A stretch of DNA of 64,000 bases, from contig CAZWWH010000001.1 in assembly GCA_964637365.1 (NCBI GenBank), positions 64,406-128,405 on the forward strand, in the 5' to 3' direction. Under the pieces are notes generated by a model that made no database searches, had not been told where the DNA came from, and was given only the letters and a program-made list of their open reading frames with translations. Of this stretch, positions 962 to 62,574 are shown one piece after another. How positions within the stretch are numbered: the stretch's first letter is position 1; every line of letters begins with the position of its first letter. The position numbers and the translations under genes were made by a program. Source of the DNA: an uncultured Peptococcaceae bacterium. GTDB taxonomy: Bacteria > Bacillota > Dehalobacteriia > UBA7702.

Positions 962-1009
962 CCCCTTTGACCTTGAGAAAGGGATAAAATAATTTCACGG
1001 CAGCGATAA

Positions 1010-1045
1010 AAAGACCTCTATCCTAAGGATAAAGGTCTTTTTCTG
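1010..1045. terminator. Bidirectional intrinsic terminator between the + small ORFs and the convergent minus operon
   Basis: Imperfect hairpin aagacctctatcctaaggataaaggtctt flanked by an A-run and a T-run. Confidence 0.6.
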
Positions 1046-1049
1046 TAAG

Positions 1050-1364
1050 TTATTTTTCTTCAGGCCCATACCACATATGGCGAACCAAATTCACATTACC
1101 ATCGGATAAAAAGTCAACGCCTTCCATTTCCAACAGCAGCCTGTGGGTTTCCTTTCCCATGGGTTCAAAGGCATCGCTCAAGCCACCAAAACGGTTCACC
1201 ACACGATGGCAAGGGAGTTCCTTGGGGGCGGTATGCAGGGCGCAGCCCACAATTCTGGACATATGGGGATTTCCCAAAAGTCTGGCAATTTGCCCGTAGG
1301 TTGTAACTTTTCCAAAGGGAATCTGTGCGGTAATCTCATAAACCAATCGAAAGGTATTATTCAT
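1050..1364 (-). CDS. MGMT-family protein (methylated-DNA-[protein]-cysteine methyltransferase DNA-binding domain only, Ogt C-terminal-like)
   Basis: PCHRVV active-site motif and a 'TYGQIARLLG' helix-turn-helix; likely start MNNTF immediately after the TPM gene stop; the long ORF from 1439 would overlap the upstream gene. Confidence 0.7.
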   Translation of the reverse strand: MNNTFRLVYEITAQIPFGKVTTYGQIARLLGNPHMSRIVGCALHTAPKELPCHRVVNRFGGLSDAFEPMGKETHRLLLEMEGVDFLSDGNVNLVRHMWYGPEEK

Positions 1365-1374
1365 AGGCAATGAA

Positions 1375-2169
1375 TCAAAATTTTCCACCGCCGCCACCAT
1401 GGCTGGTACCGGAGGAACCCACATGGGTACTGCTTCCACCGTTATCCTTTGGTCGCGGCGTTTTAGCGACAGTAGTATACAGAAATAAATCGCTGGAAGA
1501 AGTTACATGAAAGCTGTCCTCCCTCATATAATTTCTGGCAGCGGGCTGACGTTTCACGGATTTCAGCTGGGCACGCAATGAAAACAGCACAATCAAAGCT
1601 ACAGCAAGCCCTACAGCCAAGGCAATACCAATGGTACGAAGATAGTCAGACGCGGTTGTCATATGATTTCCCTGGTCATAGGCTTCGCCCTTTTCCGCCT
1701 GTACTAAAAAGTCGTCACTTAACGTGGCAAAGTCCATAAAGGCGTCATAATATTGGCCGTCACTCAAAGAAGGCACCACCTGTTCGCCGATGTAGTCAAT
1801 GCCCCAATCAGTAAAGGCGGTGATGCCGAACCCCGTTGTGGAAATCCACCAGTCGCGGTCTTCCATACTGACGAGAAACAAAGCGCCGTCTTTATTTACC
1901 CCAGAGCCATAACCGTTATAATCATAAAAATCATCGGCAAATTCCATAGGCGTCTTCCCTTCACAGGAAGGTGTTGTAACCACCACCAAATCAAATTGGT
2001 GGGCAGTAGAGACCTGCTCTAAGGCTTCCGCAAGAGAAGCTTCCTCCTCAGTGGTCAAAAGGTCGGCGTTATCCACCACAGAAGGTGTTTCATCAGCGGA
2101 TACAGCCATAGATAACATTAACAAAACGCAAAGGAGACATCCGATAAAAATGGAAAAAAATCGTTTCAT
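1375..2169 (-). CDS. TPM-domain protein (YdjH/YgcG-like) with signal peptide, C-terminal TM helix and Gly-rich tail
   Basis: Signal peptide, TPM phosphatase-like core (..DLVVVTT..GALFLVSMEDRDWWISTT..), C-terminal TM and GGGGG tail; third gene of the SPFH operon. Confidence 0.6.
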   Translation of the reverse strand: MKRFFSIFIGCLLCVLLMLSMAVSADETPSVVDNADLLTTEEEASLAEALEQVSTAHQFDLVVVTTPSCEGKTPMEFADDFYDYNGYGSGVNKDGALFLVSMEDRDWWISTTGFGITAFTDWGIDYIGEQVVPSLSDGQYYDAFMDFATLSDDFLVQAEKGEAYDQGNHMTTASDYLRTIGIALAVGLAVALIVLFSLRAQLKSVKRQPAARNYMREDSFHVTSSSDLFLYTTVAKTPRPKDNGGSSTHVGSSGTSHGGGGGKF

Positions 2170-2181
2170 ACAGGCACCTCC

Positions 2182-3261
2182 TTACATTAGTAGCAGTCCA
2201 ATCGCAGAAGCGATGACCGAAACCCCAGCAAATACACCGGCAAACCAGCGAACAGCGGCGCCTTTATCCATGGGGAGATTTCCCACAAATTTTCCAGTTT
2301 GGCCATTCATCGCAAAGAGGTATTTTTCTCCGTTCCAGGAGGTATTAAGAATCCAAACAGGCAGCAATGCGTAATGAACGTCTCCTTTGGTCAAGGACAC
2401 CTGAGAGCTGCGAATGCCGACGGTTTCGTATCCCATAACTGTTTCCGCAAACAATTCCTCGGTACTGCGCTTAATACGCACATTTGCCCGATCCCTGCTT
2501 TCTTCAGCGGTCACATCATATTTATCCGCTAAATACCCGGCGAGATAAGCGGTTTGAAAATCCACTGCTTTGGAAAAATCAAAGGGCTCAATGGACTCCA
2601 TCAAATCATCGGGCATATGACTGGAACCATCCACAGGGACGTTATCGAACCCCACAGTTCCCCCTCTAGTTACCAGAAAATGAGAGGTTTCTACATAATT
2701 ATAATCACTGTCGCTCCAGGCACGGGTGCGAGTTGCATTGTAAGCAATATTAGCATCAGTATCACAATCAAAAAGCCAGAATGGAACGTAAATCCCTTTG
2801 ATTTCGTCAATGTGGTTTTCATCCTTAAAAACTTTCGGCAAAAGTTTTTTTCCTGACATATGATTTTTCAGAGCATTTTTGGCTGCCTCTTTGCTAATCT
2901 GAAAAGGAACTACCAAATCCGGCTTTAAAGTTCCGGAAAGCTTTGACCTCATCACCACAGGGCTGTCACAATAGGGGCATTGGGAAGCCGCGGTGTTTTC
3001 GTCTACGATGATTTCCCCGCCGCAGGATTGGCAAACATAGACGGTCATTGAGTCCTCTTCACCCTCATCCCACTGCCGTACATGTTCTTCATTCCAATCT
3101 AAAGTGTCTGTTCCCTGAACATTTAATACATCGTCGCAAGCCTTCAAAGTTTCTACATCAAATTCCGTATCACAGAAAGGGCACACCATCTTCTGGGCAT
3201 CGCTATTAAAACTGATAGCGCCGCCGCAGCATGGGCATTTATATTCCATTAAATCACTCAT
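2182..3261 (-). CDS. Zinc-ribbon protein (YdjG-like) with two N-terminal CxxC...CxxC ribbons and a C-terminal TM helix
   Basis: YKCPCCGG..CPFCDTEF and YVCQSCGG..CPYCDSPV ribbons; position between the SPFH and TPM genes mirrors B. subtilis ydjG-ydjH-ydjI. Confidence 0.55.
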   Translation of the reverse strand: MSDLMEYKCPCCGGAISFNSDAQKMVCPFCDTEFDVETLKACDDVLNVQGTDTLDWNEEHVRQWDEGEEDSMTVYVCQSCGGEIIVDENTAASQCPYCDSPVVMRSKLSGTLKPDLVVPFQISKEAAKNALKNHMSGKKLLPKVFKDENHIDEIKGIYVPFWLFDCDTDANIAYNATRTRAWSDSDYNYVETSHFLVTRGGTVGFDNVPVDGSSHMPDDLMESIEPFDFSKAVDFQTAYLAGYLADKYDVTAEESRDRANVRIKRSTEELFAETVMGYETVGIRSSQVSLTKGDVHYALLPVWILNTSWNGEKYLFAMNGQTGKFVGNLPMDKGAAVRWFAGVFAGVSVIASAIGLLLM

Positions 3262-3270
3262 AGGAACTCC

Positions 3271-4584
3271 TTATTTGATATCGTTCTCATCAAACCGGTC
3301 GCCACATTCAGGACAGAATTTTGGCGGATGATGAGGATCTTCCGGCTCCCAACCGCATTTATCGCAGCGATACAACGGCGCTCCTTGGGGCTTGGGACTG
3401 CCGCATTCGGAACAGAACTTGCCCTTGTTCACGACTCCGCAGGAACAAGTCCAACCTTGGTTTGCCGCAGGTTTGGGACTGCCGCATTCTACACAGAATT
3501 TACCCTCATTCACTGCGCCACAGGAGCAGGTCCACCCCTGGGATTGATGAGCACTCTGTGGTTGATTCGATTGCTGGCCCATAGCGAAAAGATTTTGTGC
3601 ATTGGAGCCGCCAGCCTGCTGGGCCATACCAAGGCCCATAAATCCCATCATGGCGCCGCTCTCATTGGCTGCCGCTGCTTTCATGGCATCGCTTTGGGCT
3701 CCTACCAAGGTCGCCGCCGCCATAGAGGGATCCCGCATAATGGCATTGCGCTGGGCCTGCTTGATCATATCTTCATCCTCAGGGCTAGCGGTCACAGAAT
3801 TCATCGCCATGGAGGCAATCGCAATCCCGCGGGTTTCCCGCCATTTAGGTGTTAAGACACTGTCCAGGGCCTCGGTAATCTCCACGGTATGACCGGGCAA
3901 AGCACTGTAACGAATCCCCATTTCGGAAATCTTCGCAAAGGCTGGCTGTAAGGCTGAAAGGAGCTCAGCTTTGAGCATACCGTCAATTTCTTCTCTGGGA
4001 TATTCCTGTTCCACGTTGCCACAAACATTGGTATAGAACAGCAGAGGATCAATGATTTTATAGGAATAGGTCCCGTTGCAACGGACAGAGATATCAATGT
4101 CCAGGCCAATATTGCGGTCTACCACACGGAAAGGAACGGGATTCGGCGTTCCATATTTATTATCAAGAATTTCCTTGGTATTGAAATAGTAAATACGCTG
4201 ATCCTTCCCGGTATCGCCGCCAAAGGTAAAACGTTTGCCAATGGTGCGAAAGGTATCCTTGATACCGTCACCCAAATTACCCGTAAAGATGCTGGGCTCG
4301 GTAGAGGTATCGTAAACAAACTCGCCGGCTTCAGCACAAACCTCTACAACCTTTCCTTGCTCCACAATAATCATACACTGGCCGTCGGCTACGGCAATAC
4401 CGCTGCCGCTGGAAATAATATTATCATTGCCTTTGGTATTGGAAGACCGACCGGAAACGCGTTTTTGCCCCTTGACTACCAATACGTCCTTATCAATGGA
4501 ATCACAATAGAAAAATTCTTTCCATTGATCTGCCAATGTGCCGCCGGCAGCGCCAAAGGCTGCTTTGAGAAGTCCCATATACAT
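3271..4584 (-). CDS. SPFH/band-7 domain protein (YdjI-like) with three C-terminal zinc-ribbon repeats
   Basis: SPFH-like core followed by a Gln/Ala/Met-rich linker and repeats QGWTCSCGAVNEGKFCVECGSPKP, QGWTCSCGVVNKGKFCSECGSPKP, YRCDKCGW..CPECG; first gene of a 4-gene minus-strand operon. Confidence 0.6.
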   Translation of the reverse strand: MYMGLLKAAFGAAGGTLADQWKEFFYCDSIDKDVLVVKGQKRVSGRSSNTKGNDNIISSGSGIAVADGQCMIIVEQGKVVEVCAEAGEFVYDTSTEPSIFTGNLGDGIKDTFRTIGKRFTFGGDTGKDQRIYYFNTKEILDNKYGTPNPVPFRVVDRNIGLDIDISVRCNGTYSYKIIDPLLFYTNVCGNVEQEYPREEIDGMLKAELLSALQPAFAKISEMGIRYSALPGHTVEITEALDSVLTPKWRETRGIAIASMAMNSVTASPEDEDMIKQAQRNAIMRDPSMAAATLVGAQSDAMKAAAANESGAMMGFMGLGMAQQAGGSNAQNLFAMGQQSNQPQSAHQSQGWTCSCGAVNEGKFCVECGSPKPAANQGWTCSCGVVNKGKFCSECGSPKPQGAPLYRCDKCGWEPEDPHHPPKFCPECGDRFDENDIK

Positions 4585-4963
4585 ACCCCTTTCAACTAAT
4601 AGAATTTATTATGCTTTCTGGATAGTCATGAAAAAAACGCCTTGCTTCGACATTTTATCGCTTATTTCTCCATAATAATTATTATACCATGATTGACAAC
4701 AATGTAACACAGTCTTTTATTTAAAATTGATTATTTTACATCGAAATATACTCATTTGCCATCATAAGGTTCCAATTCAGTCACAATGTATTGAAACGCT
4801 TCGACCACTTTTTTTTGAACAAGTTTTTCTATTATTTAACGAATAAAAATCTTTCGATAAAAACATGGCTTTCACGTACACTGTTTCTTGGGTGTCTACC
4901 GCAAGACATGATAAACACCGAAGTTCATTGACTTTTCAATATTCAGGCTCAATAAAAAACCAC

Positions 4964-5003: not shown

Positions 5004-5077
5004 TGGAGCGGGTGAAGGGAATCGAACCCTCGTAACTAGCTTGGAAGGCTAGGGCTCTACCATTGAGCTACACCCGC
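5004..5077 (-). tRNA. tRNA-Gly (anticodon UCC), CCA encoded
   Basis: The minus-strand sequence GCGGGTGTAGCTCAATGGTAGAGCCCTAGCCTTCCAAGCTAGTTACGAGGGTTCGATTCCCTTCACCCGCTCCA folds as a cloverleaf: 7 bp acceptor stem, D stem GCTC/GAGC, anticodon stem CTAGC/GCTAG with loop CTTCCAA, T-loop TTCGATT. Confidence 0.85.
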
Positions 5078-5739: not shown

Positions 5740-6456
5740 TCAATTGTTTTGCTTTAAAAAGGCCTCGTCAATGCCGAAGATTTGCTCAATCCCCTTCTGG
5801 GCCATGGCCAATAATTCATTTAATTGGGCTGGAGAAAAATCACTATTTTCGCCAGTGCCCTGGATTTCGACAAAATTGCCTTGTCCCGTCATCACCACAT
5901 TCATATCCACATCAGCTTTGCTGTCCTCTGCATATTCCAAATCCAAAGACGCCTCGCCGCCCACGAGGCCCACACTAATCGCGGCGATTTTGTTTTTCAG
6001 AATTTTCGGATTCCAGCGTAGCTTTTGGGCTGCCAAGGCCAGAGCCAACCAAGCGGAGCTGATGGCGGCAGTCCGTGTACCGCCATCGGCCTGAATTACT
6101 TCACAATCAATTTTAATGGTGTGTTCCCCCAACAGCTCCAAATCCACGGCCTGACGCAGGCTGCGGCCAATGAGACGCTGAATTTCCACAGTACGTCCGG
6201 TTTGTTTCCCCCTAGCGGCTTCACGATCACTGCGGGTCAAAGTAGAAGCAGGCAGCAAGGCGTATTCTGCTGTCAGCCATCCTTTACCGGAATCTCGTAA
6301 AAACGACGGAACTCCCTCCTCTACGGTCACAGCCGTCAGAACCCGAGTGTCGCCCTGACTCCAGAGAACTGAGGAAACAGCGTATTTTTGCAAACCCGTT
6401 TCAATTTTAATGGAACGGATATCATCTAAGGCTCTTTGGCCTCTGTACTGATTCAT
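5740..6456 (-). CDS. rph: Ribonuclease PH
   Basis: RNase PH core ([14 protein letters not shown].., [12 protein letters not shown]..); start taken at [12 protein letters not shown], which removes the overlap with the upstream gene. Confidence 0.9.
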
Positions 6457-6469
6457 AATTACCCCCCTA

Positions 6470-7777
6470 TTAGTCTTCATCAGGCTCATCAATGGACTCT
6501 TGAACCACTTCAACACGAATAATGCGCCGATTTTCCATTTCACGCACAATGAATGTCATATTTTGATAGGAAATTTTATCTCCAGTGGAAGGAATGCGGT
6601 CAAAGAGCTCCAGCAAAAATCCGCCTACAGTGTCATATTCGGGTACATCGCCAACGTTGAGATCAATACGGTCGGCAAAAACGTCAATGGGCAAAGCACC
6701 GTCCACCAAATAATGACCTTGGGATAATTCCACAAATTCCTCTTCATCATCGTGGAGATATTCGTCATCCATCCGGCCAACGATGACCGCAAAAATATCA
6801 CTGAGGGTCACGATGCCAGAGGTTCCACCATGCTCATCAATGACTACGGCAATTTTCGTTTTCTTTTTCTGGAACATACGAAGAAGTTTCCCCGCGGAAA
6901 TTCCTTCGGGAACCGCTTCCAAGGGACGAATTTTCAGCGCACTTTTATCGCTGCCGGGAGGCAGAGTAAATAAATCCTTAATATGGACAAACCCAATAAT
7001 ATTATCCTTTTCCTCACTGCAAACGGGAAACCGGGTATATTTGTACTGATTGACAACCTTTAAATCTTCTTCCAAGGGATCTTCCAAATAGAGACAAACC
7101 ATGTCGGTGCGAGGAGTCATGATCGCTTCAGCGTCTTTATCGCCTAAATCAAAAATATTATCCATATAGCGATATTGCTGGGGATCCAACAGACCGCTAT
7201 CGCTGCTTTCCGCCATCAGAAGCTTAATTTCCTCATCAGTATAAGCCTGATTCTCTTCTGTGGATTTATGACCCATTAGACGCATAGCGCCATTGGTAAC
7301 AGCATTAAAAAGTAACATGATAGGGTACGTCAGACGGTAAAACCAAACCAACAACGGCGCCGACCGCAAGGCCCAGCGTTCTGTTTTTAAAATCGCCAAG
7401 GATTTGGGGATCAACTCACCCACCACAATATGAAAGGCCGTAATAATGATAAAGCCAATGGCCACAGCAATGGTGGAAATCACGGCTTCACTTAAACCAA
7501 ATTTTGAAAGCAGTGGACGAATCAAATCGGAAACCGCAGGTTCTCCCAACCACCCTAGGGCCAGAGACGCCAGGGTAATACCCAACTGACAGGCGGATAA
7601 ATAGGCGTTCACATTGGCGGAAACCAACTGGGCGTATTTCGCCCCGGCAACGCCATTGGCTACCAACATATCTACCTGGGATTTGCGCACGCGAACCAGG
7701 GAAAATTCCGCCACAACGAAAAAGGCGTTCATTAATAAAAAGAAAACAACTAAAAGCAAACTAATGGCAATCGACAT
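6470..7777 (-). CDS. HlyC/CorC family transporter (CNNM/DUF21 TM domain, CBS pair and CorC_HlyC C-terminal domain)
   Basis: N-terminal 4-TM DUF21, two CBS-like segments, C-terminal transporter-associated domain; 435 aa. Confidence 0.85.
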
Positions 7778-50145: not shown

Positions 50146-52617
50146 TCAGGGTTTTACTACAATGTTGACGAGTTTATTGGGAATGGGAATCACTTTCATC
50201 ACATTCTGGCCTTCGGTCAATTTGGCAAAGGCTTTGGTTCCTTTGACATGTGCTTCCAGGGCGCCTTTATCAAGACCGGCGGGAACCACCAATTTTTCCT
50301 TTACTTTGCCGTTGACCTGGATGACGATTTCCACTTCATCGACGGCCAAAGCGGTTTCATCAAACCTCGGCCAGGATAAATCCATAATAGATTCCTTGTG
50401 GCCCATCATTTCCCACATTTCTTCGGTGATGTGGGGAGCGAAAGGAGAAAGCAAGAGAATCAAGGTTTCCAACCCTTCCTTGAGCAAGCCTTCGTTGACG
50501 GCTTTGCTTTCGGCATAGCCCACTAAGCCATTGGTCAGTTCCATAATGGCACTGATGGCAGTGTTGAAATTGAAACGCTGGCTGATATCGTCAGTAACTT
50601 TCTTCATGACCGTATGAATCAAACGGCGAATATCCTTATCCTCTTTGGAAAGAGCTGCAATATCGTAACCGTCTTTTAATTCCAGGTGGGAGGTGACGAT
50701 GCGCCATACGCGGTTTAGGAAACGGTAGCAGCCTTCTACAGCAGAGTCATTCCATTCCAAATCCTTTTCCGGAGGCGCCGCAAAGAGAATGAACAGACGG
50801 GCAGTATCAGCGCCGTATTTATCAATAATGGCTTCGGGGCTGACAACATTCCCCAAGGATTTGGACATTTTAGTGCCATCCTTCAGCACCATACCCTGAG
50901 TCAAAAGATTTTCAAAGGGTTCCTTGGCCTTGCTGAGTCCCAAATCATAGAAGACCTTCATAAAGAAGCGGGCATACATCAAATGAAGGATGGCGTGTTC
51001 CACACCGCCGATGTATTGGTCAACGTTCATCCAATAGTCACTGATCTCTTTATCAAAGGCTTTTTCCGCATTTTTTGGGTCGGTATAACGGAGGTAATAC
51101 CATGAGGAGCACACAAAGGTATCCATAGTATCTACTTCTCTGGTGGCATGGCCGCCACAGCAGGGGCAAGTGGTATCCATAAAGCTCTTGCTGGTCTTTA
51201 ATGGAGAATCGCCGCCAGGATTAAATTCCACGTCGGTAGGCAGGAGCACAGGCAGCTGATCTTCGGGAACCGGCACTGTGCCGCATTTTTCACAATAGAC
51301 CATAGGGATGGGAGCACCCCAGTAACGCTGACGGGAAATCAGCCAGTCACGAAGGCGGTAATTTACCACTCTGCGGCCAAGGCCTTTTTCTTCCAAATAA
51401 TCGGCGATTTTTTCAATGGCCTCTTTATTTTTTAAACCGTTGAAAGGACCGGAATTGGTTAAATACCCTTCTTCCACATAGGCTTCGGTCATGTCGGCGG
51501 CTTTCAAATTCGGGTTATCCGGCGGCAGAATGACTTCCTTGATACCAAGACCGTATTTTTTAGCGAAATCAAAGTCGCGCTGGTCATGGCTGGGGACACC
51601 CATAACGGCGCCGGTGCCATAATCCATAATGACATAGTTGGTAATCCAAATGGGAACACGTTCCCCGTTCAAAGGATTAATCACATAACGGCCAATGAAC
51701 ATCCCCTCTTTTTCCAAATCCGTAGAGGTTCGGTCCACTGTCGAGAGTTTGTGCATTTTTCTCTGAAAAGCTTTGACATCTTCCTCGTACTCGGAGCCTG
51801 CCACCAGCACGTCCACTAAAGGATGCTCCGGCGCGAAAACCATGTAACTCACGCCGTAAACAGTGTCAGGGCGGGTAGTGAATACGGAAAGTTTTTCGTC
51901 ATGGCCTTCGATGTCGAAATCAATTTCCACACCGGTACTTCGTCCAATCCAGTTTTCCTGCATGGTTTTAACCTTGTTGGGCCAACCGGGGAGCAATTCC
52001 AAATCATCCAGCAATCGTTGGGCGTAATCGGTAATTTTAAAGAACCACTGCTCCAGGTTTTTCTTCTCCACAGTGGCGCCGCAGCGTTCACAGGCGCCGT
52101 CAACCACCTGCTCGTTGGCGAGAACGGTGGCACAGGAGGGGCACCAGTTCACAGCGGCCTTTTTCTTATAGGCCAAGCCGTTTTTGTAGAGCTGGAGGAA
52201 AATCCATTGGGTAAATTTATAGTAATCGGGCAGGCAGGTTGCGACTTCTCTGTCCCAATCATAGCTGATCCCCAGGGATTTCAACTGAGTGCGCATATTG
52301 TCCATATTTTTCAAGGTCCAGTCCACGGGATGAACCTTATGCTTGATGGCGGCGTTTTCCGCAGGCAGGCCGAAGGAATCCCAGCCCATAGGATGAAGCA
52401 CGTTATATCCCTGCATTCGTTTGAATCGTGCCACGACATCGCCGATGGAATAATTCCGTACATGTCCCATATGAAGATTCCCCGAGGGATAAGGAAACAT
52501 TTCTAAAAGATAATATTTTTCTTTGGTGATATCATCAGATACCTTAAAGGTTTTTTCTTCTTCCCAGTGCTTTTGCCATTTTTCTTCAATGGCCTGGGCA
52601 TCATATTTCACTTCCAT
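50146..52617 (-). CDS. leuS: Leucine--tRNA ligase
   Basis: HMGH (LHMGHVRNY) and KMSKS motifs, 823 aa. Confidence 0.97.
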
Positions 52618-52644: not shown

Positions 52645-52873
52645 TGCGCAATCGGCATAAAAAAAGCCGTCCCCAATGGGACGGACTGTTCCGCGTTACC
52701 ACCCAAATTGACCTTACGGCCCACTTGTAAGAGGATAACGGCCCAAACCGCCGCAGTTTCCCGCAGAGGACTCCAAGACGAGTTCAGCCTGGCCATCGTA
52801 CCTCGCAGCTACCGGCACGTCTCTGAATATGGGACAAGGCTTACTACTTCTCTTCATTGTCCGAAACAATATT
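52645..52873 (-). promoter_or_regulatory. T-box riboswitch leader of leuS
   Basis: Minus strand carries the conserved T-box AATTTGGGTGGTAACGCGG followed by terminator hairpin ccgtcccattggggacgg plus T-run; a Stem-I-like hairpin lies near the 5' end. Confidence 0.75.
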
Positions 52874-61104: not shown

Positions 61105-62574
61105 TTGTTTACGACGAAAAGCTTATATACAAAATCTGACTTTAAAGTCAATCAAAATATCGAATGGACCATTTTGTCCGACGACCAGTGTGAAGATATT
61201 TTCTTAACCGCTCTGGAATTATTGGAACGGACCGGCGCCGACATTTTAAGCGCCAAAGCCCGGGAAATCTTTGCCCAAAATGGTTGCCTCGTCAATGGAG
61301 ACCGCGTCCGCATCCCCTCTATCAAAGTACAAAAAGCTTTAAATGAAACACCGAAACGCTTGACTCTTTGTAACCGCAATGGCCAACGGGCCATGGTTCT
61401 GGAGGCCGGCAACATTCATTACGGCCCCGGTTTTGACAATAAAAAAATCATGGATATCGAAACCGAAGAAATTCGTGATGCCAAAAAATCCGACGTTGCC
61501 GACATCGCCAAAATTTGCGACAGCATTGCCGATGTAGATTTTGTAATGAACAATGGGCTTCCCGGTGACGTTCCCGCTGCAGTGGCAGCACTCCACAGCT
61601 ATGAAGCTCTGGTTTCCAACACCACCAAACCTGTTATCCAGGAAGTGAAAACCAAAGCCCAGGCAGAAGCCGTCATGGAAATGGCCTTTGCCGTAGCGGG
61701 CAGCGCCGAAGCCTTTGCTTACGATCCCTTTACCGCTCTTCTGGTGGAAAACGAAGAAACCCTGTCCATCAATGCGGAAGCCACCGACATCGTATTGGCC
61801 GCTGCTACCAAAGGCATGCCGGTGATTTTCTCCAACCGTCTCATCACCGGTCTTACCGCTCCCATGGAAAGCGCAGGCGCAATCATCAGTGCTCTGGCCA
61901 ACTCCCTAGCCGCCATCGTATTGGCACAAATGGCAGCTCCCGGTGCTCCCGTCATTACCGGCGGATTCTTCACCATCAATGACAAAGACAATGAAACCTG
62001 CCCTTACGGTGCACCGGAAATCTCCCTGTTGGGTGCTGGTTTCAGCGCAGTGCTCCGCTATCTCAAGGTTCCCAGCTTTGGTTTCGCCGGCGGCACCGAC
62101 GCCAAGATCAGCGACGCTCAAATGGGCCTCGAATCCACATTCTCTCTGCTCCAGTCCGGTCTCTCCGGCACCAACCTGATTTACGGTGCAGGGCAAATGG
62201 AAACCGGCGAGTATGGCAGCGCTTTCCTGGTGGTCATGGCCAGTGAGGTTATGGGCATGACCCGCCGCATCATCAGCGGCGTTCCCATGGACGAAGACCG
62301 TTTGGCCCGCGGCGTTATCGACGATGTGCAGCCCGGTGGCCACTATCTCGGATCCCCTCACACCAGATATTACTTCAAGAAGGAACAATTCTGGCCCAAA
62401 TTGATGAACCGCGCCAGAATTGACGACTGGACCGCCGCAGGGGCAAAATCTTTGGGACAGCGCACCATGGAAATGACCAGAGACTTGCTGGCCATGGCAG
62501 CGCCCGAAGCATTGCCTGCCGACACTGCTGCCGCCTTGAAGGACATCATCACCAAAGCTGAAGCTGAACTGTAA
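61105..62574 (+). CDS. MttB-superfamily methyltransferase, non-pyrrolysine type (quaternary amine:corrinoid methyltransferase, MtgB-like)
   Basis: 489 aa TIM-barrel trimethylamine-methyltransferase family with no in-frame TAG; TTG start preceded by AAAGGAGAG. Confidence 0.85.
   Translation: MFTTKSLYTKSDFKVNQNIEWTILSDDQCEDIFLTALELLERTGADILSAKAREIFAQNGCLVNGDRVRIPSIKVQKALNETPKRLTLCNRNGQRAMVLEAGNIHYGPGFDNKKIMDIETEEIRDAKKSDVADIAKICDSIADVDFVMNNGLPGDVPAAVAALHSYEALVSNTTKPVIQEVKTKAQAEAVMEMAFAVAGSAEAFAYDPFTALLVENEETLSINAEATDIVLAAATKGMPVIFSNRLITGLTAPMESAGAIISALANSLAAIVLAQMAAPGAPVITGGFFTINDKDNETCPYGAPEISLLGAGFSAVLRYLKVPSFGFAGGTDAKISDAQMGLESTFSLLQSGLSGTNLIYGAGQMETGEYGSAFLVVMASEVMGMTRRIISGVPMDEDRLARGVIDDVQPGGHYLGSPHTRYYFKKEQFWPKLMNRARIDDWTAAGAKSLGQRTMEMTRDLLAMAAPEALPADTAAALKDIITKAEAEL

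Follow-up and report, generated by a model that had tools for sequence, protein, structure and literature searches.

Four co-directional genes lie on the minus strand of the 64,000-nucleotide stretch of DNA analysed here (the window), and an ORF check found all of them where a first-pass annotation had placed them. They encode, from gene 1 to gene 4, an SPFH protein, a zinc-ribbon (ZnR) protein with a transmembrane (TM) segment, a TPM protein and an MGMT-family protein, and are separated by gaps of 9, 12 and 10 nt; genes 2 and 3 are each preceded by an AAGGAG-type ribosome-binding site. The annotation of four tightly spaced genes with these domains was borne out by the ORFs, Pfam, the Cys4 ribbons and the TM predictions. 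By consensus match, a candidate sigma-70-like promoter is predicted at 4681..4708 on the minus strand (GTTACA, 16 nt, TG-TATAAT; 10/12 matches, extended -10 TG), downstream of the terminator of a tRNA-Gly gene, leaving a leader of ~100 nt before the operon. After gene 4, an intrinsic-terminator-like hairpin with a U-run is found at 1008..1045 on the minus strand (dG -21.5 kcal/mol, z -6.05), and none of 200 shuffled sequences was equally stable. Since plus-strand ORFs end at 961, this hairpin may be bidirectional. All four genes are thus bracketed by a single promoter-like site and a single strong terminator. Upstream of the operon lie tRNA-Gly, RdgB/Ham1 and RNase PH, and the window as a whole is a housekeeping chromosomal region.

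Gene 1 runs from 3271 to 4584 (437 aa) when read from its first ATG. However, a start-codon comparison revealed that an MGL N-terminus is common to 40/40 SPFH homologues, which places the real start at 4578 and gives a product of 435 aa (3271..4578, minus strand). It is a YdjI/SamI-like SPFH (Band_7_1) protein (PF13421, E=3.7e-18), predicted to be cytosolic, which has no TM segment and consists of a conserved N-terminus, the SPFH domain, a helical region, a low-complexity segment rich in Met, Gly, Ala and Gln, and three C-terminal zinc ribbons. A PDB sequence search with this protein gave no matches; its AF2 model resembles stomatin, prohibitin, HflK/C, erlin and flotillin in Foldseek (E down to 2.5e-8, probability 1.00). 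The family is large, with more than 8000 homologous clusters and, at the level of 50% representatives, 4133 members at E<=1e-3 and 713 at E<=1e-30. Identity is 62-77% over Lachnospiraceae, Oscillospiraceae and Peptostreptococcaceae and 65-67% to Lysinibacillus. Among the best 150 of the 50% representatives there is no named Bacillus entry, the sole named one being a Streptococcus suis 'SPFH domain-containing protein', and a plasmid tblastn with the SPFH protein as a bridge to B. subtilis YdjI returned only Ralstonia, Monoglobus and similar records, one Ralstonia record being labelled 'ydjI'.

Gene 2 (2182..3261, minus strand), which starts 9 nt past the SPFH stop behind an AAGGAG ribosome-binding site, encodes a YdjG/SamG-like protein of 359 aa, predicted to be tail-anchored. 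It has two N-terminal Cys4 ribbons, whose cysteines C9/C12/C27/C30 and C77/C80/C95/C98 do not vary among 54 homologues, and its single TM segment is C-terminal (residues 336-358). In Pfam, all zinc-ribbon matches of this protein are sub-threshold and no family reaches the cutoff. The central domain is conserved among homologues, and the AF2 model (pLDDT 67.6) has no fold match in the PDB, including for this domain; Ravi et al. 2024 describe the middle domain of YdjG as 'NTF2/YpeB-like'. Gene 3 (1375..2169, minus strand) follows 12 nt past the ZnR stop, with an AAGGAGG ribosome-binding site, and encodes a YdjH/SamH-like TPM protein of 264 aa (PF04536 TPM, E=1.3e-31). It has hydrophobic segments at residues 5-23 (signal/TM) and 180-198 (TM), and its layout is a signal peptide/TM, an extracytoplasmic TPM domain, a TM segment and a cytosolic Gly/Ser-rich tail.

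The resemblance of these three genes to B. subtilis YdjI, YdjG and YdjH, proposed in the first-pass annotation, is upheld by the published architectures, namely Band-7+ZnR for YdjI, ZnR(s)+TM for YdjG and SIG+TPM+TM for YdjH (Ravi et al. 2024, Table S3). We based membership of the YdjGHI/SamGHI module on the shared Pfam family, these architectures and gene-neighbourhood continuity. As in the B. subtilis pspA-ydjGHI (pspA-samGHI) operon, the same three architectures are combined in one operon, and the present Band-7/SPFH protein resembles YdjI in being soluble, in its low-complexity linker and in having zinc-ribbon sequence at the C-terminus. The differences are that the B. subtilis operon is headed by pspA, has the order G-H-I and is driven by a sigma-W promoter, whereas the present one lacks pspA, has the order I-G-H and carries a promoter that is sigma-A-like by consensus; a motif search for a sigma-W-type TGAAAC-N16-CGTA site found none in the whole window. 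B. subtilis YdjI has one zinc ribbon, and the present protein of 435 aa has three. It had been suggested that the SPFH protein itself acquired zinc ribbons. This does not stand, because a C-terminal zinc finger is already present in YdjI/SamI; the number of ribbons in the SPFH family ranges from 0 to 5, and most close homologues have four.

The absence of pspA from the operon was confirmed, the upstream positions being taken by tRNA-Gly, Ham1 and RNase PH. Pfam batch scans of 180 flanking ORFs and of 10 selected neighbours found no PspA. A phmmer search of the window and the loci gave nothing significant, which is weak by itself as it used a single approximate E. coli PspA query, and 0/80 species have a PspA at up to 7 kb from the module. 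To place the operon among its relatives, we surveyed 80 species-representative loci and four other relatives whose SPFH proteins are 75-77% identical. The order SPFH, ZnR, TPM (I-G-H) without pspA occurs in 58/80 loci and the B. subtilis order G-H-I in six. By class, there are 40 loci with adjacent I-G-H, nine with an insert between I and G-H, six with G-H-I, five with I-G whose third gene has diverged beyond the reach of tblastn, four with I-G cut by a contig end, nine with SPFH alone and seven that are too short. All three genes are thus detectable in 55/80 loci, and SPFH with ZnR in nine more. The operon had been called rearranged; this is right in so far as its order departs from that of B. 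subtilis, but I-G-H without pspA is the norm of the clade. The trio is also present in P. stomatis and in two of three further relatives, the contig of the third (L086) stopping after gene 2, and in total it was found in at least 595 species. The SPFH component is far more tightly conserved than its partners, and the ZnR/TM partner family, which has no Pfam model, itself comprises more than 8000 clusters. The flanking genes differ in every relative examined, which gives the trio the character of an autonomous cassette.

Gene 4 has a longest ORF of 1050-1439 and an alternative start at 1424, which would give 124 aa and a 50-nt overlap with the TPM gene. Most homologues have 101-106 aa, favouring the ATG at 1364 and a product of 104 aa (1050..1364, minus strand). 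This product carries PF01035 (DNA_binding_1, E=3.1e-22) alone, without the N-terminal AGT domain, in agreement with the first reading of a DNA-binding-domain-only MGMT-like protein with PCHRV, and PGAP already names it 'MGMT family protein'. The cysteine of PCHRV (C52), the HTH tyrosine (Y23) and the arginine finger (R37) are conserved. Its best full-length PDB matches are Atl1 (3GVA, 1e-14) and vpAtl (2KIF, 7e-12), while its NCBIfam equivalog scores of 29-38 bits compare with cutoffs of 164-345. With the ATL family, represented by S. pombe Atl1, V. parahaemolyticus vpAtl and E. coli eATL/YbaZ, it shares a one-domain build in a class of ~100-110 aa that dispenses with the AGT N-terminal domain. 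As in Atl1, the AGT Asn eight residues before the active-site position is missing; the Tyr and the Arg finger are retained. The ATLs differ in having PWHRV, PWFRV or PAHRV instead of PCHRV. The AGTs (Ogt, Ada-C, human MGMT) share the PF01035 domain, PCHRV, the Arg finger, the Tyr and the E-G motif; however, their N-terminal domain is missing here, and the similarity to them (E about 1e-7) is weaker than to the ATLs. Judged by its sequence, the gene 4 product is of the single-domain ATL type, with the cysteine retained. Among close homologues the active-site position varies between Cys and Ala, two of them (P0266 and P0363) carrying PAHR, and the presence of Cys alone is no proof of alkyl transfer, because a W->C change in the E. 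coli ATL creates no activity.

Between the TPM stop and the MGMT gene there are 10 nt with no terminator or promoter-like site, which makes it very probable that the MGMT gene is co-expressed with the module. This likely co-expression leaves room for a lineage-specific functional link between the MGMT protein and the module. The description of the MGMT gene as fused to the operon was an overstatement, as it is a separate ORF and there is no gene fusion.

We consider it likely that genes 1-3 are a self-contained, PspA-less membrane-stress operon of the YdjGHI/SamGHI type, standard in Clostridia, and that gene 4 encodes an unrelated DNA-damage protein. A stress-sensing role of the trio, together with the interactions and oligomerisation of its proteins, is what we infer by analogy with B. 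subtilis. The TPM protein would hold its domain outside the cell and its short tail in the cytosol, with the tail-anchored double-ZnR protein on the cytosolic face, and the two might together act as the receptor by which the soluble SPFH protein is brought to the membrane. The latter could then assemble into a stomatin/HflK-like ring or cage beneath the membrane, its zinc-ribbon array and low-complexity linker serving as the docking end. In common with the SPFH cage scaffolds (stomatin, prohibitin, HflK/C-FtsH, flotillin, erlin, and QmcA-YbbJ as an SPFH-NfeD pair), it has an SPFH fold followed by long helices and an operon link to membrane partners. Unlike them, it lacks a built-in membrane anchor and ends in a C-terminal zinc-ribbon array, and the place of NfeD or FtsH is taken by ZnR/TM and TPM partners. 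The SPFH protein may organise a membrane patch and restrain signalling by its two membrane partners; in B. subtilis, SamI restrains SamGH signalling. The ATL-like gene would have landed at the 3' end of this operon in the present species alone and is probably transcribed by read-through.

That all four genes form one functional unit, for example one that reacts jointly to membrane and DNA damage from lipophilic alkylating or electrophilic agents, or one in which the ATL-like protein is tethered to the membrane complex, is very improbable. The layout would suit such a unit, with a 10-nt gap or a 50-nt overlap before gene 4 and one promoter-like site and one terminator for the whole, and a second, independent contig from this species (L001) carries the four genes as well. 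Yet an MGMT-family gene stands at the trio in 0/80 species-representative loci and in 0/4 other relatives, and since it is missing there, the four-gene unit fails. Its close homologues, at 71-72% identity, trail unrelated operons, either an ECF sigma/DUF4179 (anti-sigma) pair or KsgA. In addition, the MGMT-like protein has neither a TM segment nor an interaction domain, and the literature holds no link between the two functions. The first-pass annotation had treated the MGMT linkage as a meaningful arrangement; the four genes are not conserved together in related genomes, and a novel link between a membrane scaffold and DNA alkylation repair is not supported. The MGMT gene follows the trio in the present species only and is a chance neighbour, and the locus is a widespread PspA-less variant of a known module with this neighbour behind it. 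A mobile conflict or defence cassette, acting for example by abortive infection or phage exclusion at the membrane, is an improbable account of the trio, if less so than the four-gene unit. The genomic context is wholly variable between species, the unusual conservation of the SPFH protein (62-77%, and 65-67% to Lysinibacillus) could reflect horizontal spread, and phage infection induces the B. subtilis operon via sigma-W. On the other hand, none of the four proteins matched a PADLOC-DB family at E<=0.01, Pfam found no nuclease, protease, NTPase, toxin or other effector-type domain in the trio, and the window is a housekeeping region of the chromosome. The few short 'phage' records with homologues, ten in the phage collection, lack annotation; seven are contigs from human faeces, and none is taken here as a sign of phage carriage.

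A reading that deserves more weight, though we still regard it as doubtful, is that the module recruits PspA exactly as in B. subtilis and that pspA lies elsewhere in the genome, which was inspected over 64 kb only. In B. subtilis, PspA foci depend on YdjI, and according to a suggestion of Ravi et al. 2024, partner operons without pspA may recruit PspA from a gene elsewhere. Against this stand the lack of PspA at up to 7 kb from the module in 80 species and in the 64-kb window, and the PspA-independence of the B. subtilis SamGHI phenotypes, PspA being dispensable for the developmental phenotype of SamI. As to the self-contained PspA-less operon, it can tentatively be taken further. The trio could be the main, possibly ancestral, form of the Sam/Ydj system, a stand-alone transmembrane stress sensor and scaffold without an ESCRT-III partner, from which the PspA-coupled B. 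subtilis operon is derived. A smaller supplement to this reading would make the Cys-retaining ATL-type protein a minimal, N-domain-free active alkyltransferase; we think this extended version possible at best.

YdjGHI/SamGHI has been studied only in B. subtilis, where it was defined as a PspA recruiter. The same module occurs here free of pspA, in another order and with several zinc ribbons, in hundreds of gut and rumen Clostridia. A search of the accessible literature found no described PspA-free SPFH/TPM/ZnR operon in Clostridia, which does not rule out one published elsewhere. The pspA-free Clostridia operon supports the recent proposal of a PspA-independent core function of SamGHI, and the anaerobes that carry the trio offer hosts in which this core function could be examined free of confounding by PspA. 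With neither a Pfam model nor an assignable fold, the family of ZnR/TM partners represents a concrete annotation gap.

Four co-directional ORFs on the minus strand encode, in order, an SPFH protein (3271-4584), a zinc-ribbon/TM (ZnR) protein (2182-3261), a TPM protein (1375-2169) and an MGMT-family protein (1050-1439; favoured form 1050-1364). The ORF coordinates, Pfam matches, Cys4 ribbons and PCHRV motif confirm the gene layout and domains given in the first-pass annotation. Pfam assigned gene 1 to Band_7_1/SPFH (PF13421, E=3.7e-18), gene 3 to TPM (PF04536, E=1.3e-31) and gene 4 to DNA_binding_1 (PF01035, E=3.1e-22). Zinc-ribbon matches of the ZnR protein were all sub-threshold in Pfam, and alignment of 54 homologues revealed two invariant Cys4 ribbons (C9/C12/C27/C30 and C77/C80/C95/C98). 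Hydropathy analysis placed a single C-terminal TM in the ZnR protein (336-358) and two segments in the TPM protein, a signal/TM at 5-23 and a further TM at 180-198; no TM segment was seen in the SPFH protein. The AF2 model of the latter (pLDDT 65) matched human stomatin, prohibitin, HflK/C, erlin and flotillin in Foldseek (best E 2.5e-8, probability 1.00), ring- or cage-forming membrane scaffolds whose fold it shares.

The architectures of the first three proteins are identical to those published for B. subtilis YdjI, YdjG and YdjH (PMC11237479, PMC8581546), namely Band-7+ZnR, ZnR(s)+TM and SIG+TPM+TM (Ravi et al. 2024, PMC11237479, text and Table S3); a 2026 preprint renames ydjGHI as samGHI. 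By architecture, shared Pfam family and neighbourhood continuity rather than direct alignment, this trio is assignable to the YdjGHI/SamGHI-type module. By extension from B. subtilis, a soluble SPFH oligomer would dock on a membrane receptor made up of the tail-anchored double-ribbon protein and the extracytoplasmic TPM protein, and might arrange a membrane patch and damp signalling.

Homologues of the SPFH protein make up more than 8000 clusters at 90% identity, and 4133 representatives at 50% identity pass E<=1e-3. The best 120 clusters were full-length with 68-77% identity, save two from the same species that match at 100%, and Ruminococcus, Faecousia, Schaedlerella and Peptoanaerobacter are named among them. 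More than 8000 clusters were likewise found for the ZnR partner, almost all labelled 'hypothetical' and without a Pfam domain. When one genome per species was scanned, a relative occurred in at least 595 species, and 80 of the loci were queried by tblastn using the four proteins of the window. The trio is co-conserved in SPFH-ZnR-TPM (I-G-H) order, with adjacent genes at 40 of the 80 loci and with one to four genes inserted at 9; SPFH-ZnR pairs were seen at 5 loci where the third gene had diverged beyond detection and at 4 truncated by a contig end. The B. subtilis order ZnR-TPM-SPFH was present at 6 loci and SPFH alone at 9, while 7 were too short for judgement. The genes flanking the trio vary by species, and it therefore behaves as an autonomous cassette.

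Among 180 flanking same-strand ORFs, Pfam analysis showed DUF4428, DUF6935, UvrD and similar to recur as neighbours, and PspA was not a recurrent family. PspA was also not found in ten selected neighbours of 190-260 aa or, by a weak phmmer probe, in the window or the loci. The absence of PspA and the I-G-H order are the norm for the clade and no peculiarity of this locus. Recruitment by the trio of a PspA encoded elsewhere in the genome is conceivable, and we consider it rather unlikely. There is little support for regarding the trio as a defence cassette, since there were no PADLOC matches and Pfam found no effector domain in the trio. The three genes are a variant of the known YdjGHI/SamGHI module that lacks PspA, follows I-G-H order and carries several ribbons; it is very common in Clostridia, and we found no description of it in the searchable literature. 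The ydjGHI-like operon proposed earlier stands as to trio architectures, lack of an adjacent pspA and an order unlike that of B. subtilis, whereas the proposed rearrangement, ribbon acquisition and MGMT linkage do not.

Of the three ribbons at the C-terminus of the SPFH protein, two are tandem W-x-C-x-C-G...F-C-x-E-C units and the last is C-D-K-C-G-W...F-C-P-E-C. B. subtilis YdjI has one ribbon, whereas the window protein has three. The number ranges from 0 to 5 across the broader SPFH family and, among the closest 120 homologues, is four in 97 and three in 23, leaving the window protein with fewer than most near relatives. The array is a family trait of variable copy number and not the acquisition that had been claimed.

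Gaps of 9, 12 and 10 nt separate the four genes, the second and third of which have AAGGAG-type ribosome-binding sites. A sigma-70-like promoter with an extended -10 (4708-4681, minus strand; consensus match) is followed by a leader of ~100 nt, and a hairpin with a U-run lies 3' of gene 4 (-21.5 kcal/mol, z = -6.05); a motif search of the window found no sigma-W-type promoter. Because SPFH homologues all start with MGL in the alignment, the start of this gene was refined to 4578. MGMT homologues are mostly 101-106 aa, a length that favours the ATG at 1364 as the gene 4 start; the resulting 104-aa form matches them and has a poor ribosome-binding site. The alternative start at 1424, picked by some gene callers, has a better Shine-Dalgarno (GGTGGAAG, 8 nt upstream) and yields 124 aa, with a 50-nt overlap into the TPM gene at its Gly-rich 3' end. 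Both versions are present in databases. A stand-alone tRNA-Gly(TCC) gene (5004-5077, minus strand), with its own terminator and a near-consensus promoter-like site (5119-5091, minus strand), lies upstream of the SPFH operon, between it and rdgB/rph.

Neither a promoter- nor a terminator-like site was seen at the TPM/MGMT junction, and therefore the MGMT gene is likely co-transcribed with the trio by read-through. A tblastn search detected it at none of the 80 species-representative loci, and it was absent too from four further relatives with SPFH proteins 75-77% identical to the window's (L085, L086, L087/L088 and P. stomatis L002). These absences, an outcome that the first-pass annotation had itself named as refuting, contradict joint conservation of the four genes, whose arrangement recurs only on another contig (L001) from this species. 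Near MGMT homologues end unrelated operons: one (72% identity) lies 55 nt 3' of an ECF sigma/DUF4179 anti-sigma pair, and another (71%) 14 nt 3' of the rRNA dimethylase gene ksgA. That all four genes constitute one functional unit is highly improbable; the MGMT gene is a chance neighbour confined to one species.

The gene 4 protein, which retains the PCHRV motif, is unexceptional within a populous family that has the PGAP name 'MGMT family protein'. Its nearest solved structures are the alkyltransferase-like proteins (ATLs) Atl1 (3GVA, 1e-14) and vpAtl (2KIF, 7e-12), compared with ~1e-7 for true O6-alkylguanine-DNA alkyltransferases (AGTs). Like ATLs, it has no N-terminal domain and, unlike AGTs, no Asn 8 residues ahead of the active site; unlike ATLs, it keeps the Cys. 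Within this tight family (~70% identity), Ala replaces the Cys (PAHR) in the close homologues P0266 and P0363, and some members have PCQR. The Cys may therefore be dispensable; alternatively, this family might span the AGT/ATL boundary. A W-to-C change in the E. coli ATL gives no activation (PMC10779285). In view of this and of the Ala homologues, this protein may or may not transfer alkyl groups.

Identity to the window proteins falls steeply from SPFH (62-77%) to ZnR (26-65%) and TPM (21-48%), which suggests very strong constraint on SPFH or its horizontal transfer. At two Lysinibacillus loci (L076, L081), identity of the SPFH protein to that of the window is 65-67%, though the host is Bacillus-class; the adjacent ZnR partner is just 26% identical, and TPM was not detected by tblastn. 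At L060 (8869-9648), L066 (6207-6971) and five other loci, the module has genes for proteins with DUF4428, a zinc-ribbon domain, nearby; at the first two they are inserted between the SPFH and ZnR genes, and they may encode an accessory component. An AIM24-family gene (6258-6935) lies directly upstream of the solitary SPFH gene of L023, and a single TerD was seen in ORFs flanking the first batch of loci. Two metagenomic proteins, P0128 (531 aa) and P0129 (485 aa), score near the ZnR self-hit but exceed the ZnR protein in length by 125-170 aa, and may represent fusions, misassemblies or read-through calls.

Elsewhere in the window, an uninterrupted plus-strand ORF (61105-62574, 489 aa) encodes an MttB-family methyltransferase (PF06253, E=1.6e-82), within which Rfam placed a PYLIS_3 (pyrrolysine insertion sequence) match at 62092-62191, just over the gathering score. 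With no in-frame stop, this ORF probably encodes an MttB homologue of the non-Pyl type. A T-box leader (52674-52866, minus strand, 97.6 bits) lies upstream of an 823-aa ORF (50146-52617).
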